Source of the DNA: Bacillota bacterium
GTDB lineage: Bacteria > Bacillota > Limnochordia > Darwinibacteriales > DTU012
Reading direction: 5' to 3'
DNA: 64,000 nt
NCBI GenBank assembly: GCA_012521185.1
Contig: JAAYMV010000074.1
Location: 24,919-88,918, forward strand
Shown: piece by piece, positions 8,577 to 41,691 of the stretch
Numbering within the stretch: the first letter of the stretch is position 1
Layout: the number at the start of each line of letters is the position of its first letter
Notes under the pieces: model-generated
Databases searched by the model: none
Told to the model about the DNA's origin: nothing
Seen by the model: the letters and a program-made list of their open reading frames with translations, nothing else
Position numbers and translations under genes: made by a program

Positions 8577-8682
8577 CCTCGAATTCCTCCCCCATATTGT
8601 TTTTCCATTATCTACTATACGAGAAATCACAAAAACTGTCAAACATTAAATATCAGTATCTTGGGGTTTTAGAGAAGTTGAA

Positions 8683-14800: not shown

Positions 14801-15697
14801 ATGGTAAAATCAGTTCTAAAAGAAGTGGCACCCAGACTTAGAGAGGTTCTTGCCGCCATTGATAACTGGGAGCAGGTGGAAGAAATTCGCTTACGACTTA
14901 ATCGGCCTTTGGTTATTAAGGGTCGCTTTGGTGAGTACGGGATTAATTATTTTATGCAAAAATGTCAGGTGATTGATAGTTACATTGTAACTAATGAGGA
15001 TATTTCTCGTACGATTCAAATTATGAGTAAGAATTCTTGGTATGCACTAGAGGAAGAGGTTAGGAGTGGTTATTTAACTTTAGAAAATGGTCATAGGGTG
15101 GGTATAGTCGGTAAAGTGATCCTAGAGCAAGGGAGAATTAAGAATATCAAGCATGTTAGCGGTTTAAATATTCGGTTAGCAAGAGAAATTCGTGGTAGTG
15201 CCAATCAAATCATGCGGCAGCTTTTTTTGCAGGGTGAATTATTATCAACGTTAATAATTTCACCACCCGGGTGTGGAAAAACCACTTTGCTAAGAGATAT
15301 TGCTCGTCAGCTTTCTAATCAAGGTTTTAATGTAGTTATTATTGACGAGCGTTCTGAGATTGCAGCTTGCTACCATGGTTGTCCTCAATTGGATGTAGGC
15401 TTGAGGACTGATGTTTTAGATGGCTGTCCTAAAGCAGAAGGAATTACGATGGCTTTGCGAGGGATGTCTCCTCAGCTGATTATTACTGATGAAATTGGTC
15501 ATCCGGCCGATGGATTAGCTTTAGCTGAGGCAATGAAGTCTGGTGTAAAAGTAATTTCATCTTGTCATGGGGATTCTTTAGCTGATGTTCGTCAACGACA
15601 ATGGGTTAAAGAATGCAGCAGTCTTTTTCAACAAGCAATAGTTTTATCAAGGCGAAATGGGCCGGGAACCATTGAGCAGGTTCTGAAATGGAAATAA
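14801..15697 (+). CDS. spoIIIAA: Stage III sporulation protein AA (ATPase)
   Basis: Walker A ISPPGCGKTT, and operon context. Confidence 0.9.
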   Translation: MVKSVLKEVAPRLREVLAAIDNWEQVEEIRLRLNRPLVIKGRFGEYGINYFMQKCQVIDSYIVTNEDISRTIQIMSKNSWYALEEEVRSGYLTLENGHRVGIVGKVILEQGRIKNIKHVSGLNIRLAREIRGSANQIMRQLFLQGELLSTLIISPPGCGKTTLLRDIARQLSNQGFNVVIIDERSEIAACYHGCPQLDVGLRTDVLDGCPKAEGITMALRGMSPQLIITDEIGHPADGLALAEAMKSGVKVISSCHGDSLADVRQRQWVKECSSLFQQAIVLSRRNGPGTIEQVLKWK

Positions 15698-15739
15698 AAT
15701 GCATAAACTTTAACCTAGGACAGGAGTGAGAATTAGTCA

Positions 15740-16255
15740 ATGCTACGGTTATTAGGAGCATTTATGATTATTTGTAGCAGTGGGTTGATTGGTCTGATTA
15801 TGGCAAATACCTATATGACTAGACCGCTAAATCTTTATCATTTACAGCTGGCTATTCAGCTCTTGGAAACAGAAATTAACTATGCTCGTTCCTCCTTGCC
15901 TGAAGCTTGTTCAAGAATTGCTGAGCAAATTAAACAACCAGTAGCTAGTTTTTTTGGTGAATTTGCGGCCAACTTGCAAAGCTTAGAGAGTCCTACTGTG
16001 ATTGAGGCTTGGAATAGAGCCTTACAAATATTAAAAGAAGCTGGTTTTCTGAAAGAAGATCTAGAAATCATGGCTCAATTAGGTAATGTCTTAGGCCAAA
16101 GTGATGCGGATGACCAAATTAAGCACTTATCCTTGTTACAAAACAGGTTAGCTTCAGCCATTAAACAAGCTGAACAAGAACGGGATAAAAATGTTCGCCT
16201 ATGGAATTATCTAGGTTTCTGCGTAGGTGCTTTAGTAGTTTTATTGCTGTTTTAA
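15740..16255 (+). CDS. spoIIIAB: Stage III sporulation protein AB
   Basis: Size and position, with TM segments at both the N- and C-termini. Confidence 0.85.
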   Translation: MLRLLGAFMIICSSGLIGLIMANTYMTRPLNLYHLQLAIQLLETEINYARSSLPEACSRIAEQIKQPVASFFGEFAANLQSLESPTVIEAWNRALQILKEAGFLKEDLEIMAQLGNVLGQSDADDQIKHLSLLQNRLASAIKQAEQERDKNVRLWNYLGFCVGALVVLLLF

Positions 16256-16270
16256 AAGGAGGCGTGACGA

Positions 16271-16468
16271 ATGACTGATTTAACTCCCATCTATAAGATA
16301 GCAGGTTTAGGCATCTTGGTAGCAGTTTTAAATATCTTTTTAGTCCAAGCAGAGCGTAAAGAACAAGCGCAAATGTTAAGTCTAGCTGGAGTGGTAATTG
16401 TCTTGCTATGGTTGGTACAAATGGTCTCCCAATTATTTGAAAATGTGGAAGCCGTTTTTCGGTGGTAA
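16271..16468 (+). CDS. spoIIIAC: Stage III sporulation protein AC
   Basis: 65-aa two-TM protein at the expected position. Confidence 0.85.
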   Translation: MTDLTPIYKIAGLGILVAVLNIFLVQAERKEQAQMLSLAGVVIVLLWLVQMVSQLFENVEAVFRW

Positions 16469-16482
16469 AAGGAGAGCTGAAG

Positions 16483-16872
16483 ATGTTATGGGTTCCCTTG
16501 GTTTCAGGGTTAGCCATAGTGCTGACAATAATCTTATCCCAGCTCCGTTCCTTAGATCAATCATGGGCAATTATCTTATCAACAGTATTTGCGGTAATTG
16601 TTTTGTTAAGTCTAATACCACAGGTCGGTCAGTTGATGGAATTATTTCATGGTATTGCCAATGAGGCTAAAGTAGGGACCATGTACTTAAGTCCAGTTTT
16701 AAAGACTGTGGCAGTCGCATATATTACTTCATTTGGTTCACAAATATGTAAAGATGCAGAAGAAAAAACTATAGCCCATATTGTGGAACTAGCTGGCAAA
16801 GTTGTAATATGTATTATTGCTCTTCCAGTAATTCAAGCTATCTTGTATTCTTTGTTTGGTCTGATCAGTTGA
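16483..16872 (+). CDS. spoIIIAD: Stage III sporulation protein AD
   Basis: About 129-aa membrane protein. AAGGAG RBS before ATG 16483. Confidence 0.8.
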   Translation: MLWVPLVSGLAIVLTIILSQLRSLDQSWAIILSTVFAVIVLLSLIPQVGQLMELFHGIANEAKVGTMYLSPVLKTVAVAYITSFGSQICKDAEEKTIAHIVELAGKVVICIIALPVIQAILYSLFGLIS

Positions 16873-16886
16873 AGATTGGTGGGATT

Positions 16887-18068
16887 ATGGCTATGGTGGC
16901 AAGTAGATGGCTGGTTCTGGGATTAGTCTTGTTCGTGGTTTTTTTTAGTCCAGGGCTTGTTCAGGCAGAAGTAGATGAAACCATTTTTGTAGATTCTATT
17001 AAAGAACAGCTGGAAGTGTTAGAGTTAGAAGAATTAACCCGGTATGTAGAGGTTATTGATCCAGATTATCGTGAGTATTTGCCATCTTTAGATTGGCGTC
17101 AGATTGTTAGCGAGGAAGCATTTCAGATAGATATTGGTCAAATTCTGAAATTGATGCTAGGGACTTTATTTAAGGAGATTATTTTAAGTGGCTATTTATT
17201 AAAACAATTAATCGTGGTAGCTATTCTTACGGCCTTTTTGCACCAACTACAAGCTAGTTTAGGAAATGATAGTCTTGTAAATCTGGCCTTTGCTGTCAGC
17301 TTTTTTGTAATAGTATTTATTGGTCTTCAGAGTTTTCGTACTGCATTAAACTTGGCCTATCATAGTTTAAATGATCTGGCGACATTGATGTATGCGATTC
17401 TTCCGCTAATGTCCTCATTGATGGCAGCAGTAGGGGGCATAACTTCAGCTGCTCTTTTTCATCCAGTGCTGCTTTCTGTAGTTACGGCTATTGTATCTTT
17501 ATCGAAGACGATTTTGTTTCCATTATTAAACATTAATGCTTTGGTTGGCATTATGGCTCATTTTTCCAAGGAGTTTCCCTTAGAACGTTTCGCTAACTTA
17601 TTGCGCCAAGTTTGTATTATGTTATTATCCTTCTTCTTTACTGTTTTTTTGGGTATTTTAGCAGTGCGGGGCGCTATTACACCTGTTACTGATGGAGTTG
17701 CGTTAAGGACAGCTAAATTTTTGACTAGTAGTTTTGTGCCAGTAATCGGATCAATGTTTGCAAATGCCGTAGAGGTGGTAGTTGGCGGTTCATTGCTAAT
17801 TAAGAATACCGTGGGAATTTTTGGGCTAATGTTAGTTTTCTTTATGGTTGCTTTACCATCTTTAAAGATCTGGGCTATCATTTTTATTTATAAAGTGACA
17901 GGAGCGCTCTTAGAGCCAATCTGTGATTCACGAATCATTAAAACGATTGCTAGCTTGGAGTCGTCACTAACATTAATTTTTATTTCTTTAGCAACAGTAG
18001 GTTTAATGTTTTTCATAGTGATTACCATTTTAATTGGCTTTAGCAATTTTACAGCTTTAATGAGGTGA
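16887..18068 (+). CDS. spoIIIAE: Stage III sporulation protein AE
   Basis: Signal peptide plus a polytopic membrane protein of about 393 aa, at the expected position. Confidence 0.85.
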   Translation: MAMVASRWLVLGLVLFVVFFSPGLVQAEVDETIFVDSIKEQLEVLELEELTRYVEVIDPDYREYLPSLDWRQIVSEEAFQIDIGQILKLMLGTLFKEIILSGYLLKQLIVVAILTAFLHQLQASLGNDSLVNLAFAVSFFVIVFIGLQSFRTALNLAYHSLNDLATLMYAILPLMSSLMAAVGGITSAALFHPVLLSVVTAIVSLSKTILFPLLNINALVGIMAHFSKEFPLERFANLLRQVCIMLLSFFFTVFLGILAVRGAITPVTDGVALRTAKFLTSSFVPVIGSMFANAVEVVVGGSLLIKNTVGIFGLMLVFFMVALPSLKIWAIIFIYKVTGALLEPICDSRIIKTIASLESSLTLIFISLATVGLMFFIVITILIGFSNFTALMR

Positions 18069-18072
18069 TTCC

Positions 18073-18603
18073 ATGGCAACATGGCAGGAATGGCTTCGCT
18101 TATTGATTACTTTGGTAATTATCATCGGTTTTTTCGATATGCTTTTACCAGCAAATGATTTGAAGAAGTTAGCCAAATTAGTTGCTGGCTTGGTATTAAT
18201 GTTGGCAGTGTTACAACCGGTTTTAGCGATCGTTAATTTAAATTGGGTTTCTAGTTTGCAACATGATATGGAATCAGTAGTTCAAAGTAATAGTTTCCAA
18301 AGTTGGGAAGATAAAGCCCAACAAATTAGTGAAGCCGGTTTAAGACCGGTATTGCGTACAATAGAAAATAATGCGGAAACCCAATTAGAAAATTATTTAA
18401 AAAATAGTTTTCAGTTGCCGGAAGCAACAGTAAGAATAACGTTAGCAGCTGATGGAACTATTCGCTGGGTCAGGATTAATGCTTACATTGCTGATCAGAT
18501 TGTGTTAGCTGAAGAGAGACAACAGTTGTTAACTAAACTAAGGCAAGCAGTAGCAGATTATTTGCAAGTTTCTGCATCAATAGTTCAGATTACACTAAAC
18601 TAA
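18073..18603 (+). CDS. spoIIIAF: Stage III sporulation protein AF
   Basis: Two N-terminal TM segments, correct size and position. Confidence 0.8.
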   Translation: MATWQEWLRLLITLVIIIGFFDMLLPANDLKKLAKLVAGLVLMLAVLQPVLAIVNLNWVSSLQHDMESVVQSNSFQSWEDKAQQISEAGLRPVLRTIENNAETQLENYLKNSFQLPEATVRITLAADGTIRWVRINAYIADQIVLAEERQQLLTKLRQAVADYLQVSASIVQITLN

Positions 18604-18620
18604 TTAGGGGGAAATGGACT

Positions 18621-19187
18621 ATGTTAGAGAAACTATCCACATCCCAGCGAAAAATTGTTAATTGGTTAGGTTTTTTGTTGATCGTCGGAATTGGATTTAT
18701 GCTGATCAAGCCAGAGCCGGCTAACAAAATTGATTATCAACCACAAGCTACCACATTAGCTCGCTATGAGCAAACGACAACTCCGAATTATGCTGAACAG
18801 ATGGAACAGGAATTAGAATCTATCTTACAAAAAATTCAAGGCGTAGGTTCAGTGGAGGTATTTGTTACGTTAGAACGTGGTTCTAGAATTCGGGTAGCTG
18901 AAACAGTAACCGATGATTTACGGACTATTGAAGAATATCAAGGCGCAGGAGTAACTCGTACTACTCATGAACAACGACAAACTTCAGCTCCAGTAACCTT
19001 ACGGTTGGATGCGGAGAGAAAAGAGGTTCCTTTAGTTCTCGAGGAGTACGAACCTATTGTTCGTGGGGTTTTAGTAGTAGCTGAAGGTGTTGCAGATCCC
19101 CATATTCGTTATCAGGTGGCTAAAGCAGTGCAGACCGTTTTACAAATCCCCATGTATAGAATTGAAGTATTACCAAAGGTTAATTAA
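18621..19187 (+). CDS. spoIIIAG: Stage III sporulation protein AG
   Basis: Single N-terminal TM, correct position. Confidence 0.8.
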   Translation: MLEKLSTSQRKIVNWLGFLLIVGIGFMLIKPEPANKIDYQPQATTLARYEQTTTPNYAEQMEQELESILQKIQGVGSVEVFVTLERGSRIRVAETVTDDLRTIEEYQGAGVTRTTHEQRQTSAPVTLRLDAERKEVPLVLEEYEPIVRGVLVVAEGVADPHIRYQVAKAVQTVLQIPMYRIEVLPKVN

Positions 19188-19205
19188 AGAAAAGGGTGGT
19201 TTTTA

Positions 19206-19784
19206 ATGAGTGGATTCTATGTAGTGCACCGACGTAAAATGGTGTATATGCTTTTTTTAATTGGGGTCTTTGGGTTAACTGTCTGGTATGGATTTTATCA
19301 GCCAACTGTATTAGAAGATGTCACATTTGACCAAACTGACCAGCAAGCTGTAGTTGAAGCTTTAGCTGGCGGAATACAACGCAGTGTTAGTGAACTGGAA
19401 CAAAGCATTAAAGTATCAGTTGCACCTGTTCCAACAAAATTTGCTGAATATCGGATTGAACGAGAACGTGTTCGTAGTCGGCAATTAGAGTTATTTGAAA
19501 ATATAGTAAGTGATGCTTCTTTAAGTCAAGAAAGACGGCAAGAAGCCCAAAACCAGCTAGTAGAGTTAATGTCTTTAATGGCCATGGAAACAGAAATTGA
19601 GAACTTACTAAAAGCTAATGGATATATTGATGCGGTGGCGTTAGTCGATAGTGATTCTGCTACAGTTGTGGTACCAGTAACCTTGACTAAAGAAGAAGCC
19701 ACTCGAATTGGCGAAATCATTAACCGGATTACTAAGGTACGTTTGGAAAGAATCACGATTATTGATGAGTTATCCCGTTCGTAA
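19206..19784 (+). CDS. spoIIIAH: Stage III sporulation protein AH
   Basis: N-terminal TM followed by a YscJ/FliF-like soluble domain. Last gene of the operon. Confidence 0.8.
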   Translation: MSGFYVVHRRKMVYMLFLIGVFGLTVWYGFYQPTVLEDVTFDQTDQQAVVEALAGGIQRSVSELEQSIKVSVAPVPTKFAEYRIERERVRSRQLELFENIVSDASLSQERRQEAQNQLVELMSLMAMETEIENLLKANGYIDAVALVDSDSATVVVPVTLTKEEATRIGEIINRITKVRLERITIIDELSRS

Positions 19785-22168: not shown

Positions 22169-22693
22169 ATGGAAGCACTCGATCGGATCGTAGTTAGGGT
22201 CTTAGCGTTATTGTTAGTGGCTCTATCGGTATTAATAGCAATGACATTATGGGGAGATGTATTGCTAGTTAATTGGATCTTAACCTTACAAAATAGGTTA
22301 TTTGATGGGGTAATCTTGATCCTAATCTTATTGTTATTTAGTTTGTATTTAATTTTTATGAGTGTAAAACCAAAAACAGATGAACGTGTAGTATCCCATC
22401 ACACGACCTTGGGCATGGTTAATGTTAGTGTGGCAACCTTAACAGGTTTGATTATGAAAGCAGTTCAACAATTTGAAGGGGTTAAATATGTTAATGTAAT
22501 GATTAATGAAGTTGAACCCTTAAAAATCAGTATAGAACTGCAATTATTGCCAGATCATAACATCCCTGAGTTAAGTCAATCAATTCAGGCAAAAGTAACC
22601 GAATATTTGCGAAGCACTGTAGGAATTAGCGCTGAATCCATTAATGTATTGATTAAGAGTATTGTAAATGACCACAAGCAAAAACTCGGTTAA
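22169..22693 (+). CDS. Alkaline-shock-response membrane anchor protein (AmaP-like)
   Basis: Two N-terminal TM segments plus a soluble tail. Conserved neighbour of Asp23. Confidence 0.6.
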   Translation: MEALDRIVVRVLALLLVALSVLIAMTLWGDVLLVNWILTLQNRLFDGVILILILLLFSLYLIFMSVKPKTDERVVSHHTTLGMVNVSVATLTGLIMKAVQQFEGVKYVNVMINEVEPLKISIELQLLPDHNIPELSQSIQAKVTEYLRSTVGISAESINVLIKSIVNDHKQKLG

Positions 22694-22943: not shown

Positions 22944-23366
22944 TTGAGTAGGCGTCTTGCTCGACAAACTGCATTGCAGACACTGTATCAAATTGACATT
23001 GCTAAAATCTCAGCAGAGGAAGGTTTAGCAACCAGATTAGAAGAAACAGAATTGGAAGAACCTGATCAACAGTACACAGCGAATGTAGTAAAATCTGTAG
23101 TTCTTCATCTGGAAGAAATCGACAGCTTACTAGGGAAATTCGCAGTGGATTGGGCAATTGACCGAATGCCGATAGTGGATCGTAATATTTTACGGCTGGC
23201 TATTGGTGAAATATTATATGCCAAGGATATTCCAGTAAAGGTAAGTATTAATGAGGCGGTTGAATTAGCAAAAATATTTAGCAGTGATGAATCCGCAAGG
23301 TTTGTTAATGGTGTGTTAGGTGCCATCGTAGATTACCTTGCGTTGGGTGAACAAAATGATGGATAA
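22944..23366 (+). CDS. nusB: Transcription antitermination factor NusB
   Basis: ARQTALQTLYQIDIA...VDRNILRLAIGEILY. Confidence 0.9.
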   Translation: MSRRLARQTALQTLYQIDIAKISAEEGLATRLEETELEEPDQQYTANVVKSVVLHLEEIDSLLGKFAVDWAIDRMPIVDRNILRLAIGEILYAKDIPVKVSINEAVELAKIFSSDESARFVNGVLGAIVDYLALGEQNDG

Positions 23367-24333
23367 ATTATTTTTAGGTATTGATACTAGTAATTATACA
23401 ACGTCCTTAGCCGTAGTTGATACATATGCAAACTTGGTTAATCGTACCCAACAATTACTAACGGTTAAAGCAGGTCAAAGGGGTCTTCGCCAGTCGGAGG
23501 CTCTTTTTTACCATGTAAAAAATTTACCAGAACTGTTTGGCCAATTAAGTCGATTAGTGCCAAATTTAAAGGAACGAATTGCAGCTGTAGCTGCTACTAT
23601 TCAACCTCGGCCTACAGAAGATTCTTATATGCCAGTTTTTCTGCCTGGTGATGGTTTAGGGCGAACTATTGCTAGCTTGTTGCAAGTTCCTTTTTATGCC
23701 TTGTCACACCAAGAAAATCATATTTGGGCTGGTTTAGCCAGTGCAAAAGGTCCTATTGCTCAACGGTTTTTAGCTGTACATTTGTCAGGTGGAACTAGTG
23801 AAATCTTGAAAGTACAAGTGACTGAGAGTTATGGTTTTACGACTACAATTTTAGGCCAAACTCAAGACTTACATGCTGGTCAATTTGTGGATCGATTGGG
23901 GGTTGCTTTAGGTATACAGTTTCCAGCAGGTGCCGCTATGGAGAAATTAGCCCAAGCCAGTACCAAAGATTTGGTGATTCCGTCCTACCATAAAGATGGC
24001 ATTATTAGCTTTGCTGGCCCAGAAACAGCTGCCCGTCGCCTGTTAGGACAGGAAGAAGCTGCAGATATATGTAAAGCAGTATTTATGACAATTGCTCGTA
24101 CAATTACTAAGTTAATTGACTGGGCAATGACTAAAACTGGGTTAGACCAAGTTTTAGTTGTTGGTGGAGTTGCGGCTAACCAAATAATTAGGCAACATTT
24201 GCAAAAGCGGTTACCTAAAGCTGATTTGTTTTTTGCTGCTCCTAATTATAGTACTGACAATGCTATAGGTGCTGCTTATTATGCTGGGTTAAATTATTTG
24301 GGTCAGGAATTTTATGGTAATGTTTTTCTGTAA
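23356..24333 (+). CDS. ASKHA-superfamily protein, Kae1/TsaD/YeaZ (Peptidase_M22)-like, function unknown
   Basis: N-terminal LGIDTSNYTTSLAVV (TsaB-like phosphate-1 strand) and VHLSGGTSEIL (like TsaD LVSGGHT, but lacking the His). It occupies the slot where folD normally sits between nusB and xseA. Confidence 0.6.
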   Translation: MMDKLFLGIDTSNYTTSLAVVDTYANLVNRTQQLLTVKAGQRGLRQSEALFYHVKNLPELFGQLSRLVPNLKERIAAVAATIQPRPTEDSYMPVFLPGDGLGRTIASLLQVPFYALSHQENHIWAGLASAKGPIAQRFLAVHLSGGTSEILKVQVTESYGFTTTILGQTQDLHAGQFVDRLGVALGIQFPAGAAMEKLAQASTKDLVIPSYHKDGIISFAGPETAARRLLGQEEAADICKAVFMTIARTITKLIDWAMTKTGLDQVLVVGGVAANQIIRQHLQKRLPKADLFFAAPNYSTDNAIGAAYYAGLNYLGQEFYGNVFL

Positions 24334-24366
24334 TCCGGCATAAGGTGTAACAAAGGGGGAAAAGCC

Positions 24367-24543
24367 ATGTGGATTAAACTAATTATTGGTGCGTTAATAG
24401 GTTTAATAGTAGGTCACTTTGTTACACCAGGGTATGCCTTGTGGGCGGTTGTCGGAATCATTGTTGGTTTTCTTGTGGAATTGATCAGTAAAAAGTTAGC
24501 TAAAAAAGATCAAGCAGAAAAAACAGAAAGTGAAAGTAATTAG
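24367..24543 (+). CDS. Small two-TM membrane protein (GlsB/YeaQ/YmgE-like, 58 aa); absent from the ORF track
   Basis: GGGGGA RBS 7 nt before the ATG. Sequence MWIKLIIGALIGLIVGHF...VVGIIVGFLVE, followed by a perfect terminator. Confidence 0.5.
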   Translation: MWIKLIIGALIGLIVGHFVTPGYALWAVVGIIVGFLVELISKKLAKKDQAEKTESESN

Positions 24544-24624: not shown

Positions 24625-25833
24625 GTGGACGGTCCTAGGATATTAAGCATTAGTGAATTGACTAGTTTAATCAAAAACGAATTAGAACAACCAATTTTTA
24701 AAAATATCGCTGTTGAAGGAGAAATTTCAAATTTTATTCACCACACATCCGGTCACATGTATTTTTCTCTAAAAGACAAGAATAGTAAAGTTAAGGCAGT
24801 CATGTTTCGCGGCCGCAATATGCGCTTAAACTTTATTCCAAAGAATGGCGATACAGTGGTAGCTATAGGTTCTCTTGGTGTTTATGAGCCTAACGGTGAG
24901 TATCAGCTTTATATAGATCAAATGTTTCCACAAGGTGTTGGGGCGCTACATATTCAATTTGAAGAATTAAAAAATAAGCTTCAACAGGAGGGCTTGTTTG
25001 ATTATGAACGCAAACGACCTTTGCCTACTTTGCCAAGTCACGTAGCCGTAATCACCTCACCTACAGGTGCTGCTATTCGTGATATCTTGAGTGTAATAGG
25101 CAGAAGATTCCCTAAGATGAATGTTTTAGTTATTCCTGCTATAGTTCAAGGTGTTGAGGGTCCGCCTAGTATTGTACAAGCTTTCGAATTTGCTGCTCAG
25201 CAGTCTGACTTAGATGTAATTATTCTTGCTAGGGGAGGCGGTTCGCTAGAAGAATTGTGGGCTTTTAATGATGAAAGAGTGGCACGGGCTATTGCTCAGT
25301 GTCCAATTCCAGTTGTGACAGGAGTTGGTCATGAAACAGATTTTACAATTGCTGACTTTGTTTCAGACTGTCGCGCTCCAACGCCTTCAGCAGCAGCTGA
25401 GCTAGTAGTTCCTGATTACTTTGAATTACAGCGAACAGTTCAAGGATACTATCAGCGGCTATTAGTTAATATTGAGAACCTAATAGCCAATAAGAAAACC
25501 AGTTTATCCTATTTAACTAATCGGGGAGCATTGTTAAGACCCCAAGACAAATTAAACCGTGAAAGACAGCGGGTAGATGAATTATTGTCAAGGACTTATC
25601 GCCAGATCGAGTATCATCAGGATAGATTTAAACAACAATTACGACTACTATCTGGTAAACTTGATACTTTAAGTCCATTAGCGACTTTAAGTCGCGGTTA
25701 CTCTATTTGTAGTAAAAATGGACAAGTGATTGTCGATGCCAATCAGGTAGAAATTGGCGATCATGTTACTGTGCGACTAAGGAAAAGTCAATTATCTTGT
25801 ATTGTAGAAAAGAGGGAGGAAGTTGACTACTAA
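24625..25833 (+). CDS. xseA: Exodeoxyribonuclease VII large subunit
   Basis: OB-fold N-terminus (EGEISNF...HMYFSLKD), and the following gene is xseB. GTG start after AGGAGG. Confidence 0.9.
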   Translation: MDGPRILSISELTSLIKNELEQPIFKNIAVEGEISNFIHHTSGHMYFSLKDKNSKVKAVMFRGRNMRLNFIPKNGDTVVAIGSLGVYEPNGEYQLYIDQMFPQGVGALHIQFEELKNKLQQEGLFDYERKRPLPTLPSHVAVITSPTGAAIRDILSVIGRRFPKMNVLVIPAIVQGVEGPPSIVQAFEFAAQQSDLDVIILARGGGSLEELWAFNDERVARAIAQCPIPVVTGVGHETDFTIADFVSDCRAPTPSAAAELVVPDYFELQRTVQGYYQRLLVNIENLIANKKTSLSYLTNRGALLRPQDKLNRERQRVDELLSRTYRQIEYHQDRFKQQLRLLSGKLDTLSPLATLSRGYSICSKNGQVIVDANQVEIGDHVTVRLRKSQLSCIVEKREEVDY

Positions 25834-26056
25834 GAGTTTTGAAGAAGCTTTAAAAGATTTGGAAGATGTTGTTCAAAAGTTAGAAGATGGGGAGACAACT
25901 TTGGAAGAATCGTTAAAGCTTTTTGAACAAGGAGTTAGTTTGGCTCGTTATTGTGCCGTTAAACTTGATGAATCAGAAGCAAAAATTAATCTACTTTTAG
26001 AAAAAAATGGTCAGTTTTTGCGAGAACCGTTTGAAATCGAGGAGAAAGGAAATTAA
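25823..26056 (+). CDS. xseB: Exodeoxyribonuclease VII small subunit
   Basis: FEEALKDLEDVVQKLEDGETTLEESLKLFEQG. Confidence 0.9.
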   Translation: MTTKSFEEALKDLEDVVQKLEDGETTLEESLKLFEQGVSLARYCAVKLDESEAKINLLLEKNGQFLREPFEIEEKGN

Positions 26057-26058
26057 CA

Positions 26059-26946
26059 GTGAAAATTCAAGAATATTTAGCTGAACAAGTTGAAAAAATT
26101 GAAGCTGCTTTAGATCAATATTTGCCAGCAGCAACAACTAAACCAAGTAATTTACATGAATCGATGCGTTATTCAACCTTAGCAGGAGGGAAACGGCTAC
26201 GAGCCATCTTAGCTATGGAAGCCTGTGCGGCTGTTGGTGGGAAAGCGGAAGATGCCCTTAGCTTTGCCTGTGCCTTAGAAATGATTCATGCTTATACTCT
26301 AATCCATGATGATTTGCCTTGCATGGATGATGATGATTTTCGGCGAGGCAAGCCAACAAATCATAAAGTCTATGGTGAAGCAATTGCGTTACTTGCTGGT
26401 GATGCCCTGTTAACTAAAGCAATGGAGGTAATTGCTGGCTTAGTAGATCAAGGGTTAGATGCTAAAGTAGTTGTTAAAATAATTAAAGAAGTAACAACAG
26501 CTTGTGGCTCTGAAGGTTTAATTGGTGGACAAGTTGTAGATTTAATGTCCGAAGGTAAGAAAATTGATCAAGCTGAGTTGGAATATATTCATCGTAATAA
26601 AACGGGTAAGTTATTTTTGGCAGCCTTACGTGGTGGTGCAATTATTGGCGGTGCAGATGAACAACAGCTAGAATTGATTACCTGTTATGGCGAAAACTTT
26701 GGCTTGGCTTTTCAAATTACTGATGATATTCTGGATGTGGTTGGTGATGCTGAGAAGCTAGGCAAAGCAGTCGGGTCTGACTTGCGGCAAGAAAAATCCA
26801 CCTATGTTAGTATCTTTGGGTTGGAAGAAGCCAAAATTCAAGCTAAACGGTACATTGACCTATGTAGTCAGGCAGCGCAAAAATTGACTCCTGATCGTTC
26901 TGCACTGGCAAATATTGCCCAGTATGTGCTGGTTCGTGACTACTAG
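26059..26946 (+). CDS. ispA: Farnesyl/geranyl diphosphate synthase (polyprenyl synthetase)
   Basis: First DDxxD motif LIHDDLPCMDDDDFRRG and second FQITDDILD. Confidence 0.9.
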   Translation: MKIQEYLAEQVEKIEAALDQYLPAATTKPSNLHESMRYSTLAGGKRLRAILAMEACAAVGGKAEDALSFACALEMIHAYTLIHDDLPCMDDDDFRRGKPTNHKVYGEAIALLAGDALLTKAMEVIAGLVDQGLDAKVVVKIIKEVTTACGSEGLIGGQVVDLMSEGKKIDQAELEYIHRNKTGKLFLAALRGGAIIGGADEQQLELITCYGENFGLAFQITDDILDVVGDAEKLGKAVGSDLRQEKSTYVSIFGLEEAKIQAKRYIDLCSQAAQKLTPDRSALANIAQYVLVRDY

Positions 26947-26957
26947 ACATCGGTTTA

Positions 26958-26986
26958 TTGCTGAAATTTATGTGGTATGATATAAT
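26958..26986 (+). promoter_or_regulatory. Sigma-A-type promoter TTGCTG-17-TGaTATAAT (extended -10) immediately upstream of the non-coding block
   Basis: Read directly from the sequence. The predicted TSS is around 26993. Confidence 0.5.
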
Positions 26987-26994
26987 TACAGTAG

Positions 26995-27615
26995 TTTTAA
27001 ATGGATGATGCAGTATTCTAGTCATTAACCTCATTACCGAAGACGGGCCTAAAAATCCGTTAAAGGGCATATCGATGAAGTCCCTGGTGGTGGCCTCTTA
27101 CGCCCAGTTAGGGGTTGTTGCTGGGGGTTAAGGTTGAAGGGCGATCTACAATGGCATGTAGGCGTTGACCCTTCTTCCATGGAGACCCAAGTATGTGGAC
27201 TTACGGGAGACTGTATTTCTATGGCTTGGGATTGAACCTACACGCGATACGTGAACATAGTTTAGTGGTAGTTTGTGTTGGGTGTAGTGTAGCCTACCTT
27301 GAGTGATGTTGGAGGGATAGTGGATCCAAATTTGCAAATCCTCGGCCAAGGATCGCGAATTATTGCCGCTTGAAACCACCATTGCAAAAGAGGTTAGGAA
27401 TGAGTAGTTAATGTTGAGGAAAACTCCTAGACTGTTTCGTTATGAAGGTGACTTGAGGATTACGGTGTGGACTAAGTGGTAATCCAGCCTCGTTAATGGC
27501 GACAGACGAAGAGATCGGAAAGGGGAAACCGCCAGGCACGGCGACGTACTGGAGGATCTTTGGGAAAACCTGCTGGACCTAAGCCACAATCTTTACTCAA
27601 GTTATCGTCATCCAT
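26995..27615 (+). ncRNA. ole: Probable OLE (ornate large extremophilic) RNA
   Basis: About 620 nt with no sense-strand ORF. It is clearly more G+C-rich and structured than the flanking DNA. It sits exactly between ispA and a 4-TM small protein gene that precedes dxs, which is the canonical ispA-ole-oapA-dxs arrangement. Confidence 0.6.
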
Positions 27616-27638
27616 TTTACATAAAAGGGCGGTAATCT

Positions 27639-28217
27639 ATGAAGTTATTCAAACATGTGCTTACCATAGGAGGACTGACTTTTGTGATTTCGGTCCTCTT
27701 AAATATTAGTAGTACAGCAGCTTTGGCTTTATCACCGCTACATATTAGTTTTTTACTGCTTTTTTTAATTGTTCTAATTGGAATCATTTTTGATATTATT
27801 GCGGTAGCAGCAGCTGCTGGACAAGAAGCTCCTTTTCATGCTATGGCCACAGATCGAGTACCCGGTGCGAAACAATGTGTATGGTTAGTCCGTAATGCTG
27901 ATCGGGTATCAACGTTTTGTGGTGATATTGTCGGAGACATTGCCGGTACTATTAGTGGAGCCACTGCAGCGGCGATCATTTATCAACTAATTATTACAAA
28001 TCCTCAATTAAATGAGGGTATTCTAAATACAGTGTTGTTGGGATTGGTAGCTGCTTTGACCGTTGGTGGTAAAGCAGCGGGCAAAAGTTTTGCTATTAAC
28101 CGCTCAACAGATATTTTATATGTGGTAGGCCGGATGATTTATGCCTTTGAAAAAATGCGGCCTAACCAGAAAAAGAAGTCAAAACAGAATAAAAGAATCA
28201 ACAAAAAAAGCAAATAA
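27639..28217 (+). CDS. oapA: OLE-associated protein A-like small membrane protein (4 TM, Lys-rich C-tail)
   Basis: Four predicted TM helices, with conserved Asp-containing motifs FDIIAVAAAAG and GDIVGDIAG. Positioned between the putative OLE RNA and dxs. Confidence 0.6.
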   Translation: MKLFKHVLTIGGLTFVISVLLNISSTAALALSPLHISFLLLFLIVLIGIIFDIIAVAAAAGQEAPFHAMATDRVPGAKQCVWLVRNADRVSTFCGDIVGDIAGTISGATAAAIIYQLIITNPQLNEGILNTVLLGLVAALTVGGKAAGKSFAINRSTDILYVVGRMIYAFEKMRPNQKKKSKQNKRINKKSK

Positions 28218-28238
28218 ATGCAGAAGGGAGATTTACAT

Positions 28239-30116
28239 TTGTTAGATTCAATAAAATCTCCTCAACAACTACATGGTTTAAAACCAGCCCAGTTAACGGA
28301 ACTTGCTGCGCAGATTCGAGAACGAATTATCAATACAGTTGTGGAAACAGGAGGCCATTTAGGTGCTAATCTAGGCGTAGTAGAGTTAACCATAGCTTTA
28401 CACTCTGTTCTTAATAGTCCAGAAGATAAAATTATTTGGGACGTAGGTCACCAATGTTATGCTCATAAGCTATTGACTGGTCGAAATGATAGTTTTTCAA
28501 CCTTACGGCAGTTAGGTGGAATATCTGGCTTTCCACGGAAATGTGAAAGTGTTCACGACGTTTTCGATGTTGGTCATAGCTCAACTTCGATATCTGTTGC
28601 TACAGGCATGGCAATAGCGCGAGATTTGCAGAACAAAGATCATAAAATTGTAGCAGTGATTGGTGATGGCGCACTTACTGGCGGTATGGCTTTTGAAGCT
28701 TTGAACCATGCTGGCCAGTTAGGCACAGACTTGATTGTTATTTTAAATGACAATGCCATGTCTATTGCGAAAAATGTTGGGGCACTTAGTGATTATCTCA
28801 ATCATTTACGGATGGATCCAACGCTTTCTAAGGTACGTTTTGAGTTGGAAAACTTAATAAAACGTATTCCTGCGATTGGTGGATCTATGTCTAAATTAAC
28901 AGAATTGATGAAAGATGCGGTAAAAAGTATTTTGCCAGGTCAGCTGTTTGAACAGCTAGGTTTTAGTTATTTTGGGCCATTTGATGGACATAATATTCCG
29001 TTATTGCAGCGGGCTATTCGTGATGGTATCCATCGTGGTGGACCTGTTTTAATACATGTCTTAACCCAAAAAGGTAGAGGCTATGCTCCCGCTGAAGCTA
29101 ACCCAAGTAAGTTTCACGGAATTAGTCCTATGAACGGTGATACTGAAAAACATCCAGACTCCCCGTCATATAGTGAAGTTTTTGGTAATACTTTAGTAAA
29201 ATTAGCCCAGGAAGATTCTACGATTGTAGCGATTACAGCTGCTATGAAGGATGGAACGGGTTTAGCATCATTTGCCAAAGTCTTTCCGGATCGTTTTTTT
29301 GATGTGGGTATTGCTGAACAACATGGTCTAACCTTTGCAGCTGGTTTAGCAAATGAAGGAATGAAGCCGGTGATTGCTTTGTATTCCACATTCCTGCAAA
29401 GAGGGTATGATCAAGTATTGCATGATATTTGTTTGCAAAACTTACCTGTAGTAATTGGAATTGATCGGGCTGGAGTAGTAGGTGATGATGGACCGACTCA
29501 TCAGGGAGTATTTGATATTAGCTTTTTACGCCATATTCCAAATATAGTGTTGTTAGCCCCGCGAAATGGACAGCAGCTGGCTGCTATGCTAGATTGGGCT
29601 TTAAAACAAAACAAACCAGTTGCTATCCGCTATCCAAAGGCAAAAACTAAGCTTGATACTGGAGAGTTGTTCAACCCTGATTTTACCAGTAGTGAGATTC
29701 TACTATCTGGTTCTGATTGTTCAATTTTAGCAGTAGGAAATATGGTAGACAAAGCCCTAGCAGCTGCAGAGCTGCTTAAGAATCAGGTTCGCTGTACTGT
29801 TGTGGATGTGCGGTCTATTAAACCCCTTGATACAGAAACAATTAGTAGGGTTGCCAGGAAAACTAAGAATATTGTGACAGTAGAAGACAATGTTCTATCT
29901 GGTGGTTTTGGCAGTTTAATTTTGGAATATTTTAGTGGTGAATCAGGATACAAAATTGTAAATATGGGGTATCCGGATGAGTTTATTCCTCAGGGTCCAA
30001 TAGAATACTTGCAGTCTTTGTATGGATTATCTCCAGAAGGAATTGCTGCTAAAGTATTAGAAATATTAGGTAGACCTGCTTTAAAGGAGATTGTTCATGA
30101 GCAAAGTACGTATTGA
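28239..30116 (+). CDS. dxs: 1-deoxy-D-xylulose-5-phosphate synthase
   Basis: TPP motifs (GDGALTGGMAFEALNHAG), length 626 aa. TTG 28239 has an AAGGGAG RBS, whereas the upstream ATG 28218 has none. Confidence 0.9.
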   Translation: MLDSIKSPQQLHGLKPAQLTELAAQIRERIINTVVETGGHLGANLGVVELTIALHSVLNSPEDKIIWDVGHQCYAHKLLTGRNDSFSTLRQLGGISGFPRKCESVHDVFDVGHSSTSISVATGMAIARDLQNKDHKIVAVIGDGALTGGMAFEALNHAGQLGTDLIVILNDNAMSIAKNVGALSDYLNHLRMDPTLSKVRFELENLIKRIPAIGGSMSKLTELMKDAVKSILPGQLFEQLGFSYFGPFDGHNIPLLQRAIRDGIHRGGPVLIHVLTQKGRGYAPAEANPSKFHGISPMNGDTEKHPDSPSYSEVFGNTLVKLAQEDSTIVAITAAMKDGTGLASFAKVFPDRFFDVGIAEQHGLTFAAGLANEGMKPVIALYSTFLQRGYDQVLHDICLQNLPVVIGIDRAGVVGDDGPTHQGVFDISFLRHIPNIVLLAPRNGQQLAAMLDWALKQNKPVAIRYPKAKTKLDTGELFNPDFTSSEILLSGSDCSILAVGNMVDKALAAAELLKNQVRCTVVDVRSIKPLDTETISRVARKTKNIVTVEDNVLSGGFGSLILEYFSGESGYKIVNMGYPDEFIPQGPIEYLQSLYGLSPEGIAAKVLEILGRPALKEIVHEQSTY

Positions 30117-34024: not shown

Positions 34025-35338
34025 GTGAAAAGAGGACTAATTTGGTATTTTTTAGTGCCAGTAATTTTGATTATTGGCATTTTTGTCACTCCCGCTTTAC
34101 CCTATTGGGCTGGAATTCCAGGTCAAGTTCGTTTGTATCCGGGTACTGACTATTCTCTTTATGTTCAGCTTCCTTTTAGTTTGGTAGATGCCAATGGGGT
34201 AAACGTAGTTGGTGAGAAACGTAATTTTCTCTTTAATTCGGAAGAGATTGGGAAACAGTATTTTCAAGTTAGGCTATTTGGCATTATTCCTGTTAAAGAA
34301 ATGGTCGTGGATGTGGTTCCCCAGGTATATTTGTTTCCAGGTGGCCAGTCTATTGGAGTGTTAGTAAATTCCCTTGGTTTAGTGATTAGTAGAGTTGTTC
34401 CTGTTCGGGGTTTAGACGGGAAAGAATACTTTCCTGCAGCATCAGCAGGTATTCAGGCAGGAGATGTGATTTTGAAAATTGGAAATCAGCAGGTCTCCCG
34501 ACCAGGGCAAGTTGGTATGTTAATTAATCAATTAGCACCAAATTTTGATACTATTCCTATTTTGATTCGTCGTAACGAACAGATTTTAGAACGACATATT
34601 AAACCCGTTTTATCGTTACAAGAAGACTATACAGGAAAGCAACGTGAAGTGTATTTAGTAGGATTCTTTTTGGAAGATCCTGCTGCAGGGGTAGGAACTT
34701 TAACTTTTTATGATCCAGAAACAGGTCGTTACGGGGCATTAGGACATACCATAACCGACGGTTTTGGACGGGATTTGGAGATCAGTCAGGGGAGTATTGT
34801 TCAGGCGAGCATTAATAGTATCAAACAAGGATTAAAGGGTTTACCTGGAGAGAAGTTGGGTGTTTTTCAAAGTGATGATCAAATTTTAGGTACTATCGAT
34901 AAAAATACTAAATTTGGCATTTTCGGGAATTTACAAAGAACTATTAAACACGAGTATTTTCCACAGCCAATAGCTGTAGCCTTATCCCATGAAGTTCAGG
35001 TAGGGCCTGCTAAAATCTATACTGTAATTAATGGGGATCAAGTTGAAGAGTTTGATATTGAAATTACCCGGGTAATAACTCAACCTGAACCTGATGATAA
35101 GGGATTGATTATTCGCGTGACAGATCCACGATTGCTTAGCATTACTGGTGGAATTGTCCAAGGTATGAGTGGTAGTCCTATTGTCCAAAACAATAAATTA
35201 ATTGGTGCTGTAACTCATGTTTTTATTAATAATCCAGTAATGGGATATGGTAGTTTTATCGAATGGATGATTTATGAGGCTGGATTAGCTGATGAACAAC
35301 AGTCTTTGGCAGTTGTTGAATGGAAGCAAGCAATCTAA
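34025..35338 (+). CDS. spoIVB: Stage IV sporulation protein B (S55 signalling peptidase with PDZ domain)
   Basis: N-terminal TM, a PDZ segment (GIQAGDVILKIGNQQV) and a C-terminal S55 protease region (GGIVQGMSGSPIV). Immediately upstream of spo0A, as in Bacillus. Confidence 0.85.
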   Translation: MKRGLIWYFLVPVILIIGIFVTPALPYWAGIPGQVRLYPGTDYSLYVQLPFSLVDANGVNVVGEKRNFLFNSEEIGKQYFQVRLFGIIPVKEMVVDVVPQVYLFPGGQSIGVLVNSLGLVISRVVPVRGLDGKEYFPAASAGIQAGDVILKIGNQQVSRPGQVGMLINQLAPNFDTIPILIRRNEQILERHIKPVLSLQEDYTGKQREVYLVGFFLEDPAAGVGTLTFYDPETGRYGALGHTITDGFGRDLEISQGSIVQASINSIKQGLKGLPGEKLGVFQSDDQILGTIDKNTKFGIFGNLQRTIKHEYFPQPIAVALSHEVQVGPAKIYTVINGDQVEEFDIEITRVITQPEPDDKGLIIRVTDPRLLSITGGIVQGMSGSPIVQNNKLIGAVTHVFINNPVMGYGSFIEWMIYEAGLADEQQSLAVVEWKQAI

Positions 35339-35357
35339 CAGGGAGGTGGCGTACGAA

Positions 35358-36119
35358 ATGATTAAAGTACTGTTAGGAGATTATAATGAGCATCTGGGTC
35401 GCTCCATTGCCACTCATCTAGCGAAGGAGCCGGAAATTAATTTGTTAGAATATATTAATCATCCTGAAAAACTAGACGATCGAATTCAAGCTGTCGAACC
35501 GGATGTCTTGGTTATGGATTTTATGTGGCCGAAAGCAGAAGGTATTCAAATACTCGAAAAACTCTTCAATAATTACCAGGATTTGAAGGTACTTGTTATG
35601 TCTAGTTTTGGTGATGATGAGTTTGTAGAACAACTAGCTAATTTAGGTGTTGCTTATTACCTAATGAAACCTTTTAACTTAGATTGTTTAGTGGAGCGGA
35701 TTAGGTATGTAGATCAACTGGCTGCAGCTTCTCAGAGCTTCTTACAATATGCTTATAACCGTCAATCGCTAGAGGAAATGCTTGCTAAATATCTTAATCA
35801 AATAGGCATTTTTTCAAATCTTAAAGGTTATTATTATTTAATTGACGCCATTATTATGATCACTCTTAATAAGACCTGGTTAGATCGAAGAATTACTTCT
35901 AAGTTATATCCAGAAATTGCACGTTATCATGGTACAACGCCGCAAAAAGTGGAACGAGCAATTCGTTACGCCATCGACACCGCTTGGACTAGAGGTAATC
36001 TAAAAACCTTAAATCAATTTTTCCCACATACAATCGATGCTGAAAGAGGAAAACCTTCCAATTCTGCCTTCATTGCAAAAATGGCAGATATTATTAATTA
36101 TAATTTGCTAGCACAATGA
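35358..36119 (+). CDS. spo0A: Sporulation master regulator Spo0A (receiver + Spo0A-C DNA-binding domain)
   Basis: C-terminal 0A-box recognition helix region YHGTTPQKVERAIRYAIDTAWTRGN...SNSAFIAKMAD, and a receiver domain with VLVMDF (phospho-Asp). GGGAGGTGG RBS before ATG 35358. Confidence 0.9.
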   Translation: MIKVLLGDYNEHLGRSIATHLAKEPEINLLEYINHPEKLDDRIQAVEPDVLVMDFMWPKAEGIQILEKLFNNYQDLKVLVMSSFGDDEFVEQLANLGVAYYLMKPFNLDCLVERIRYVDQLAAASQSFLQYAYNRQSLEEMLAKYLNQIGIFSNLKGYYYLIDAIIMITLNKTWLDRRITSKLYPEIARYHGTTPQKVERAIRYAIDTAWTRGNLKTLNQFFPHTIDAERGKPSNSAFIAKMADIINYNLLAQ

Positions 36120-39606: not shown

Positions 39607-41691
39607 TTGCTTTATAATTCGGATTTTTATTTACCGAATGGATTATTAGGTAATGTCGAAGGTTATGAGTATCGTGCAGCTCAGCAGCAAATGGCTGATG
39701 CGATTTATCAAATACTTGATTCAGGGCATTTAGGAATCATTGAAGCTGGAACTGGAACTGGAAAATCCTTAGCTTACTTGTATCCAGCTATTTGTTTCGC
39801 AAAAACAAAACAGGAAAAAGTTGTGATTTCTACTAATACTTTAAATTTGCAAGATCAATTGTTGAATAAAGATTTACCAGGCTTACGTAAATTAGGAATA
39901 GATTTTAATGCAGTTGTAGTTCGTGGATGGGTTAATTATCCTTGTTGGGCGAGAGCTCAAGATTTTCTCTTTACTGTTACCAATTCAATAGAAGAAAAAT
40001 TAGTCACTGATCTAATTGCTGGTCTAGAGCGACAAGAAGTGACTACTATTAGTGATTGCCCAGACTTTTCCGAAGAATTGTGGGAAGAAGTACAGGCCGA
40101 ATCAGATTTATGCACTAGGGGCAAGTGCGAGTTCTATGAGCACTGCCCTATTTTTATCAATCGTCGATTAGCAGAGAAAGCAGATCTTTTAATAGTTAAC
40201 CATCATCTATTATTAGCAGATGTGAGTATCCGTCAAAAGTTAGGTTGGGATACTACAGCTGTTTTACCTAGCTATAAACATTTAATCATCGATGAAGCGC
40301 ATCATATTCAAGATGTTGCCACAGAATATTTTGCTGTTAAAGTATCACCTGTACGACTTAGTCGCTTACTAGGATTGTTTTACCGAAGACGAAAAGACCG
40401 GGGATTATTGAATCGAATTCGCCAACAAGTTAGCAAGAGCTTGTCAGAGGCTGAAGCTGCAGATATTTTTCAGCTAATTGATTGGCATATCTTGCCACAG
40501 ATTCGAGTAGTTGATGATGTTGGTGCTAAGTTCTTTGATGAATTAGCCAAATATTTACAGGAACGAAATGGAGCAGATCCAGAAAGCTTACGAATACCGT
40601 TTCGCCAGGGAATTGAGACAGAATCGGTATTAACGGCTTATGACTTACTACATAGTAATTTACGAAAATGGGAAATCCAACTAGAAAAGTTATTGGAGAT
40701 GACGGAGAGTTTAAGCGAAAAAGAGGGTTTCGAGTCTTTATTTTATCTGGAAGCCTATTATCAGAGGGTAGTAGATTTTCGTGTGGATTTAGAATTTACC
40801 ATGGATGTTAACCAACCAGGTTATGTTTATTGGTTAAAGGCCATGGAAAGACAAAGAGGAGCATCTTTACAAGGAGCACCAATTGACGTAGGTCCTTTAT
40901 TAAAAGAAAATCTGTTATTTCAGTTATCTTCAGTGATCTTTACTAGTGCAACTTTATCGGTGAATCAGGATTTCACCTATTTTCGTAAGAATGTCGGAAT
41001 TGATTTCGAAGAAGCTTGGGATCTAGTGACTTTGATTTTTGAATCGCCATTTGATTATCAAAAACAGGTGTTTATGGCTGTACCTAAAGATTTGCCATTA
41101 CCAGATAGTAGTAATTATCCAGAAGAGCTAGCCAACAAATTAGTAGACATCCTAGCTTTAACAAAAGGCCGAGCCTTTGTTTTATTTACTTCTTATAAAA
41201 TGCTGAAAGAAGTGGCCAAATATCTTAGAACAGTTGGTTTGGAACAGACATATAATTTTCTAGTCCAAGGTGAGCAATCGCGCTATATATTGATTGAGCG
41301 TTTTAAAGTGGAGCCAAATCCGGTCTTGTTAGGAACTGATAGCTTCTGGGAAGGAGTTGATGTTGCTGGAGAAGCTTTATCTTCGGTAATTATTACCAAA
41401 TTACCTTTTACTGTTCCGACAGATCCAATAGTTATGGCCCGCAGCGAATTGATTTTAGAATTAGGTGGGAACCCATTTAGAGATTATTTCCTACCAAAAG
41501 CTGTCCTTAAGTTTAGACAAGGCTGCGGTAGATTGATTCGGACAAAAACAGATCGAGGTTTATTAGTAATTTGTGATCGAAGGATTATGGACAGAAATTA
41601 TGGTGAAACTTTTATTCAATCATTAGCCAGTTGTTCCATTGAAAACGATTATTTGGATAAGCTTAAGCAGGAGGTTAATTTATGGTTATAA
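39607..41691 (+). CDS. XPD/DinG/Rad3-family ATP-dependent DNA helicase with Fe-S domain
   Basis: Walker A AGTGTGKS, a DEAH box IIDEAHHI, and a Cys cluster (C...C...C..C..C) between helicase motifs I and II. Confidence 0.8.
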   Translation: MLYNSDFYLPNGLLGNVEGYEYRAAQQQMADAIYQILDSGHLGIIEAGTGTGKSLAYLYPAICFAKTKQEKVVISTNTLNLQDQLLNKDLPGLRKLGIDFNAVVVRGWVNYPCWARAQDFLFTVTNSIEEKLVTDLIAGLERQEVTTISDCPDFSEELWEEVQAESDLCTRGKCEFYEHCPIFINRRLAEKADLLIVNHHLLLADVSIRQKLGWDTTAVLPSYKHLIIDEAHHIQDVATEYFAVKVSPVRLSRLLGLFYRRRKDRGLLNRIRQQVSKSLSEAEAADIFQLIDWHILPQIRVVDDVGAKFFDELAKYLQERNGADPESLRIPFRQGIETESVLTAYDLLHSNLRKWEIQLEKLLEMTESLSEKEGFESLFYLEAYYQRVVDFRVDLEFTMDVNQPGYVYWLKAMERQRGASLQGAPIDVGPLLKENLLFQLSSVIFTSATLSVNQDFTYFRKNVGIDFEEAWDLVTLIFESPFDYQKQVFMAVPKDLPLPDSSNYPEELANKLVDILALTKGRAFVLFTSYKMLKEVAKYLRTVGLEQTYNFLVQGEQSRYILIERFKVEPNPVLLGTDSFWEGVDVAGEALSSVIITKLPFTVPTDPIVMARSELILELGGNPFRDYFLPKAVLKFRQGCGRLIRTKTDRGLLVICDRRIMDRNYGETFIQSLASCSIENDYLDKLKQEVNLWL

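Follow-up and report, generated by a model that had tools for sequence, protein, structure and literature searches.

To our knowledge, few bacterial non-coding RNAs that still have no assigned biochemical activity are as large and as well conserved as the OLE (ornate, large, extremophilic) RNA. We describe here a locus that almost certainly consists of a full-length OLE RNA gene (ole) and the gene of its membrane protein partner OapA (oapA), located in a 64,000-nucleotide (nt) stretch of a Bacillota bacterium contig (JAAYMV010000074.1, positions 24,919 to 88,918, assembly GCA_012521185.1). This whole stretch is referred to as the window, and positions are counted from its first letter unless a locus handle precedes them.

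The functional literature on OLE covers Halalkalibacterium halodurans and two Clostridium species. OLE forms dimers in which the GGCC loop of helix P9.3 is one of the contacts (PMC12286853), and OapA binds the RNA cooperatively, at a ratio of at least 2:1, and holds it at the cell membrane (PMC12265935). Helix P3 possibly crosses the membrane in this particle, and recent structures suggest that OLE may span it. Other proteins of the particle are OapB (YbzG) on the P13 hairpin with its GNRA loop, OapC (YbxF) on a kink turn at the base of P5, and the ribosomal protein bS21 near P6. A feature expected of OapA is the lack of a proline that CNNM domains conserve. The particle is needed for growth under cold, short-chain alcohols, raised Mg2+ and poor carbon sources, and suppressor and metal-supplementation data point to a part in Mg2+/Mn2+ homeostasis (PMC12265935, PMC10898510, PMC12054373). 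OLE has been reported in almost every class of the Bacillota, where its distribution correlates with sporulation genes and where MpfA, which is anticorrelated with OLE, may be an all-protein replacement of the particle (PMC11332333). Reduced OLE variants 1 and 2, which shorten or lack P7, P8 and the long P9 arm, have also been described (Fernando and Breaker, PMC11332333).

The gap between ispA and oapA in the window measures 692 base pairs (bp), and the ole gene that it almost certainly holds is about 620-640 nt long. Rfam 15 gave two matches in the whole window, namely OLE and an unrelated T-box far downstream. The OLE model (RF01071) was matched over its entire length (1-616 of 616) on the forward strand with 502 bits (E 2.8e-144), the gathering score being 50. 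On the OLE genes of ten other genomes this model reaches 463-528 bits, and since 502 bits falls inside this range the window OLE is typical in quality. The model alignment, which agrees letter by letter with the window sequence, has 157 consensus pairs with bases on both sides, and 143 of these are canonical (91%). The minimum free energy of the segment is -211.2 kcal/mol, 24 kcal/mol better than that of dinucleotide shuffles (-187.3 +/- 4.8; z = -4.97). Because none of P7, P8 and the long P9 arm is missing, the RNA belongs to the full-length type and not to variants 1 or 2. An earlier note, made from the sequence alone, had placed an OLE RNA in this gap and had called the segment structured; the covariance-model match and the shuffle comparison bear out both statements.

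We fetched the 80 best genome loci encoding a relative of the 192-amino acid (aa) protein downstream of the gap, searched them with nhmmer using the window RNA, and aligned 70 full-length homologues, to which all family-wide values for the RNA refer. The Rfam structure was projected onto this alignment through the window sequence, and five long-range helices obtained by column-pair scanning were added to it. Standard pairs fill 87.7% of the alignment cells, compared with 40-47% after a shift of the 3' partners by 1-3 columns, and changes on both sides occur in 146 of 184 pairs. None of 500 shuffles reached the observed pairing values. The structure covaries strongly in the family.

The only open reading frame (ORF) of at least 40 aa on the forward strand of the gap is a 49-aa frame with a TTG start (27560-27709), which overlaps the start of oapA. 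The G+C content is 0.44-0.48 in 300-nt windows between 26850 and 27600, as against 0.33-0.43 in the flanks, and it is 46% in the region of the OLE match. The earlier note had described the gap as free of sense-strand ORFs and richer in G+C than its surroundings; the first statement holds apart from the 49-aa frame, and the second holds as a modest rise. A protein-coding function of the gap was rejected, as the antisense ORFs of 75 and 78 aa are unconserved. The longest stop-free stretch shifts strand, frame and position among the OLE genes. Public gene calls include a 40-aa gene antisense to the 3' domain of OLE (27493-27615 (-) in the window; L081:2855-2977 (-)), which is almost certainly spurious, because antisense frames inside OLE differ in frame and position among the homologues.

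As far as can be read from sequence and alignment, the predicted architecture fits the published one, in which the long-range helices P1-P3 close the molecule, P4-P9 form a 5' domain and P10-P15 a 3' domain (Table 1; P numbers were assigned by position against the published model). The five added long-range helices contain 81-100% canonical pairs with up to six pair types per position in the column-pair scan; helices 1-5 are 91-100% paired, and P1-P3 are also recovered by single-sequence folding. The hairpin at the P4/P4a position holds a GGCC palindrome (27046-27049), and of the two regions where OapA is reported to touch the RNA, one is in or close to P4a (PMC12265935). P5 comprises 20 pairs, 95.4% of which are formed across the alignment, and the region around its base corresponds to the one reported to form the kink turn bound by OapC (PMC9723947, PMC12286853). 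The nucleotides of the joining regions J4a/5, J5/6 (UUAA) and J6/7 (AUGGAGA) are invariant or nearly so and are kept in the window. Another palindrome, GGCC at 27344-27347 in the loop of P9.3, is at least 90% conserved and corresponds to the kissing contact of the dimer seen by cryo-electron microscopy (bridge B3; palindrome covariation) (PMC12286853). The primary OapB site reported consists of the GNRA loop and single-nucleotide bulge of P13, and the secondary site is the GNRA loop on P14.1 (PMC7936274). A close relative (L090) has a P13 with the usual one-nucleotide bulge.

All helices of the OLE RNA studied in H. halodurans and, by cryo-electron microscopy, in Clostridium acetobutylicum and C. 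botulinum are shared by the window copy, including P7, P8 and the long P9. The P9.3 palindrome, the GNRA loops of P13 and P14.1 and the conserved joining regions of P5 and P6 are common to them as well, as are the position of the gene between ispA and oapA and an anaerobic, spore-forming Bacillota host. There are two small differences. At its tip, which is hypervariable in length across the family, P8 carries 22 nt beyond the Rfam consensus (27253-27274), and P13 has a two-nucleotide AA bulge where the H. halodurans RNA has a bulge of one nucleotide. OLE is a known class, and the window copy is an ordinary member of it, without material departure from the published system.

The 192-aa protein encoded behind ole is identical to NCBI NLM25682.1, a "hypothetical protein" of a Firmicutes/Bacillota metagenome-assembled genome, and has 1361 homologues in a large protein collection. 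In the window the OLE model ends at 27627 and oapA starts at 27639. By nhmmer, an OLE gene lies directly upstream and on the same strand in 74 of the 80 best homologue loci; four of the six misses are contigs that end too close to the gene, which gives 74 of 76 among loci with enough upstream DNA. Residues D52, E63, P65, H67, D96, G99, D100, K145 and K149 are invariant in 14 diverse homologues, and D96-I-V-G-D100 represents the DxxxD motif, which is distinctive of OapA and absent from CNNM domains (PMC11332333). Kyte-Doolittle peaks are found near residues 22, 46, 110 and 137, the last two barely above 1.6, and the AlphaFold model has long helices at residues 2-31, 34-60, 87-120 and 126-154. 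In addition to the invariant K145 and K149, the last 27 residues form a Lys/Arg-rich C-terminal tail (11 Lys/Arg, one Asp/Glu), a cluster of positive charge that might serve RNA binding. The best structural matches of the predicted fold are the CNNM transporters CorB and CorC.

No Pfam or NCBIfam match was obtained for this protein and neither library returned an OapA model, so that membership in OapA was judged by synteny, motif and fold. The sole Pfam match at E <= 10, DUF4870, is meaningless, and a profile of the 14 sequences gave chance-level matches only against the PDB, the best being 3trh (E 0.018), an unrelated PurE-type enzyme. Known OapA proteins share with the window protein the site behind ole, a length of about 190-200 aa, four predicted membrane helices, the DxxxD motif, the basic tail and the CNNM-like predicted fold; there is no notable difference from them, and the identity to named homologues of Bacillaceae and Paenibacillaceae is 42-50%. 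Judged by its sequence, the predicted protein agrees with OapA in every feature that was tested. The earlier note had recognised OapA by size, topology and Asp-containing motifs, in agreement with the 192 aa, the four hydrophobic helices and the invariant DxxxD found here. Both tests that it had suggested turned out positive: the OLE covariance model was matched, and for OapA, of which Pfam and NCBIfam have no model, the linkage to OLE, the DxxxD motif and the fold all agree with its assignment.

The order of genes from xseA through xseB, ispA, the gap and the 192-aa ORF to dxs, on which the earlier note had also relied, and tlyA beyond it match the family assignments. In a set of 58 related loci whose flanks were long enough, OLE is preceded by ispA 50 times and oapA is followed by dxs 50 times, while xseA (48), xseB (47), tlyA (56), argR (53) and recN (54) are likewise frequent. 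The window gene order is the common OLE neighbourhood. The listed ATG of dxs at 28218 abuts the oapA stop codon. An alternative TTG at 28239 is the likelier start to judge by its context, since it stands 8 nt behind a good Shine-Dalgarno (SD) sequence, GAAGGGAG (28223-28230), and since relatives have shorter dxs calls (611-624 aa).

The probable ole promoter combines a -35 element TTGCTG (26958-26963), a spacer of 17 nt and an extended -10 element TGaTATAAT (26978-26986). The extended -10 is perfect, whereas the -35 agrees with TTGACA at only three of six positions, which is why a consensus promoter scan omitted it. The earlier note had called this promoter strong; the sequence it quoted is present and the -10 supports the statement, but the -35 does not. 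A -10 hexamer (at least five of six matching) occurs no more than 30 nt upstream of P1 in 66 of the 70 OLE loci, and a TG-extended -10 in 48 of the 70, frequently accompanied by a TTG 17 nt ahead of it. The promoter is not a chance match, and transcription would start at about 26993-26996. Between this promoter and tlyA only one terminator-like site was found, at chance level and inside dxs, and none between OLE and oapA. The SD-like AAGGGCGG of oapA overlaps the 3' tail of the OLE model. Given the lack of a terminator-like site and this overlap, ole and oapA, perhaps with dxs, are probably co-transcribed. Since the stretch from the ole promoter through oapA and dxs to tlyA is free of terminator-like sites, apart from the one within dxs, it could further be proposed that OLE RNA forms the 5' part of the dxs mRNA. 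This proposal draws on co-orientation, conserved synteny (dxs after oapA in 50 of 58 loci) and the missing terminator, and we consider it unlikely. If it were true, such an mRNA would couple isoprenoid (membrane lipid carrier) synthesis, at its first enzyme, in cis to a membrane-bound particle and would add a direct regulatory role to the trans-acting particle described so far.

Table 1. Features of the ole-oapA locus and of the remaining window. Positions refer to the window; strands and remarks are entered where available.
Feature	Position	Strand	Remarks
Probable sigma-A type ole promoter	26958-26986	+	Sequence read directly
OLE RNA gene, full-length type	26989-27627	+	Rfam RF01071
5' strands of closing long-range helices	27003-27038	+	Column-pair scan, 70-sequence alignment
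P1	GGAUGAU(G) 27003-27010 with (C)GUCAUCC 27606-27613	+	Column-pair scan
P2	27010-27013 with CUGU 27432-27435; UCUAG 27017-27021 with CUAGA 27427-27431	+	
Short helix	CAUU 27023-27026 with AAUG 27410-27413	+	
P3	CUCAUU 27030-27035 with AAUGAG 27399-27404	+	
Hairpin GACGGG-CCUAAAAA-UCCGUU, P4/P4a position	27042-27061	+	Rfam consensus helix; helix 6, 99.5% paired
J4a/5 (AAAGGGCAUAUCGAUGAAG), P5 hairpin (27081-27127), J5/6 (UUAA)	27062-27131	+	
P6 (inner hairpin 27146-27161)	27132-27178	+	Followed by J6/7 (AUGGAGA)
P7	27186-27230	+	
P8	27238-27287	+	
P9 arm (P9 to P9.3)	27296-27394	+	Helices 12-17; terminal loop CGGCCA 27343-27348
3' strands of P3/P2 and small hairpin GAG-GAAAA-CUC (27416-27426)	27399-27435	+	Scan, covariation, folding
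3' domain, P11 to P15 region	27436-27613	+	Helices 19-26, 84-99% paired
Outer helix of 3' domain	27447-27457/27596-27606	+	
P13 hairpin	27490-27509	+	GNRA loop GCGA 27499-27502, AA bulge 27495-27496
P14.1 hairpin	27541-27544 (loop)	+	GNRA loop GCGA
SD-like AAGGGCGG	27625-27632	+	6 nt ahead of oapA start; sequence read directly
oapA, 192-aa membrane protein	27639-28217	+	Directly downstream of ole on the same strand
Gene order nusB-xseA-xseB-ispA-ole-oapA-dxs-tlyA-nadK-argR-recN			
xseA	24625-25833		Upstream of ispA
xseB	25823-26056		Upstream of ispA
ispA, farnesyl diphosphate synthase	26059-26946	+	PF00348 204 bits, NF045485 369 bits
dxs, 1-deoxy-D-xylulose-5-phosphate synthase	28218-30116	+	TIGR00204 763 bits; adjoins oapA downstream
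nrdD, anaerobic ribonucleotide reductase	6444-8642	-	
spoIIIAA-AH operon	14801-19784		Complete-looking
spoIVB	34025-35338		
spo0A	35292-36119		
SleB-type cell-wall hydrolase gene	4874-5689	-	
SleB-type cell-wall hydrolase gene	41682-42266		

No observation contradicts the assignment of an ole-oapA locus, although some limit it. Genes for OapB, OapC and bS21 were not found in the window, in which five of the small ORFs were scanned, and the -35 element of the ole promoter is weak. The best pairing of P13 leaves two bulged nucleotides (A27495 and A27496) next to the two loop-closing pairs, while in H. halodurans a single bulged U, precisely placed, is reported to be needed for OapB binding (PMC7936274). 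Moreover, the 192-aa protein has no match to PF01595 (CNNM) even at E <= 10 and no PDB sequence match, which leaves a predicted fold of moderate confidence as the basis of its CNNM relation. The P13 bulge could also be taken, along with a one-base deletion in the 3' arm of P13 relative to the Rfam model and the 14 non-canonical consensus pairs, as a mark of a decaying, non-functional relic, and the retention of oapA without OLE at two related loci (L009 and L025) suggests that loss may occur. Decay is nevertheless very improbable, as the score is typical of full-length OLE, 91% of the consensus pairs are canonical, oapA is intact with all its invariant residues, the promoter is intact and the identical sequence comes from several independent metagenomes; the columns invariant across the 70 sequences are, by definition, also kept in the window copy.

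Even less credit can be given to the view that the segment is a cis-acting leader, such as a riboswitch or attenuator, of oapA-dxs and not a stand-alone non-coding RNA. The absence of a terminator-like site before oapA or dxs and the overlap of the oapA ribosome-binding site with the OLE tail would suit such a leader, but the segment scores 502 bits with the OLE model, fits no riboswitch or leader family, lacks a terminator/antiterminator alternative and, with 640 nt, is far above known leader sizes; published OLE, in addition, acts in trans within a membrane ribonucleoprotein (PMC12265935, PMC9723947). We regard it as least probable of all that the 192-aa protein is an ordinary small Mg2+ transporter of the CNNM/CorB type, functionally unconnected to the adjacent OLE. 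Its homologues stand directly downstream of OLE in 74 of 76 assessable loci and it carries DxxxD, which CNNM domains lack (PMC11332333), although CorB and CorC are its best structural matches and some homologues have a precomputed PF01595 match or source names such as "Mg2+/Co2+ transporter CorB" and "CBS domain containing-hemolysin-like protein". With only 192 aa, the protein ends after the fourth helix and the basic tail, and neither a CBS pair nor a CorC/HlyC domain was found in it; compared with MpfA, CorB and CorC (PF01595), it has four membrane helices instead of three. Because it lacks a PF01595 match and the CBS and CorC domains and possesses DxxxD, it is not a member of the CNNM/MpfA family. 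These three explanations together account for a very small share of the probability, and each is contradicted by the results.

For the ole-oapA locus, a working model can be drawn by analogy with the studied species. A full-length OLE RNA would be made from the conserved promoter and would be partnered by OapA encoded right behind it, and the particle would presumably assemble at the membrane of this host as it does elsewhere. Most likely it would control divalent-metal (Mg2+/Mn2+) homeostasis by way of the transporter-like OapA, which is an inference in the literature too. Tolerance to alcohols and other solvents is a plausible selective benefit in biogas fermenters.

The host, a Bacillota bacterium of biogas reactors, is uncultured and is an anaerobe that forms endospores. 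Its anaerobic and endospore-forming nature follows from nrdD, spoIIIAA-AH, spoIVB and spo0A in the window, and it agrees with the published correlation of OLE with sporulation genes (PMC11332333). An identical oapA is found on biogas-fermenter metagenome contigs, the longest of 364,678 bp, from several independent metagenomes. Among genomes of named taxa, the nearest OapA homologues have just 42-55% identity, so that the host lineage is poorly characterised; the occurrence of OLE in it is unsurprising, given that OLE is known from almost all Bacillota classes (PMC11332333). The locus is one more typical OLE example, from an uncultured biogas-reactor lineage, and it marks this host as an OLE-carrying, spore-forming anaerobe. 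It opens no new question and makes no old one newly testable, and its main use is in annotation, as NLM25682.1 is still named a hypothetical protein and public gene calls put a 40-aa antisense gene, almost certainly spurious, within OLE.

Several observations concern related loci and their neighbourhoods. At L009:5496-6582 (Firmicutes bacterium UBA5435) and L025:5467-6594 (Paradesulfitobacterium ferrireducens), ispA is followed by an intact oapA with DxxxD and by dxs, and OLE is absent from the ispA-oapA gap of about 510 nt, where no RNA family was matched at E <= 1. These gaps were rejected as divergent OLE variants, as they hold the gene of a DUF212 (divergent PAP2) membrane protein that ends about 35-40 nt before oapA. 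By tblastn, a DUF212/PAP2-like gene also lies between ispA and OLE at L012, L023, L039, L051, L053, L055 and L077, about 100-450 nt upstream of OLE; the window has no copy there. Next to ispA, ole and dxs, a lipid-phosphate-phosphatase-like gene is in keeping with the isoprenoid theme of this neighbourhood. Many of the public contigs with the window oapA or a 76% identical relative (L083-L089) start within the 3' part of OLE, at a distance of 69-135 nt ahead of oapA, and such starts recur in several independent samples. Their likely cause is that stretches of OLE conserved between co-occurring species break assembly graphs. Between nusB and xseA, the window encodes a TsaD/Kae1-family protein (331 aa, PF00814 93.6 bits) and a 58-aa hydrophobic peptide (23338-24543), and the same pair is present in L090.

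The window also carries efp, accB, accC, asp23 and nusB. ORFs 18621-19187, 22169-22693, 14267-14695, 5702-5971 and 11296-11514 gave no Pfam match at E <= 1e-5; by position, the first of these should be spoIIIAG and the second is the membrane protein gene that commonly comes after asp23. The T-box leader noted above (RF00230; 61792-61999 (+), 127 bits, E 8.6e-28) is followed by an open frame of at least 653 aa at 62041-63999 (+), which runs off the end of the window and whose product, with its HIGH-type class I motif, looks like an isoleucyl-tRNA synthetase.

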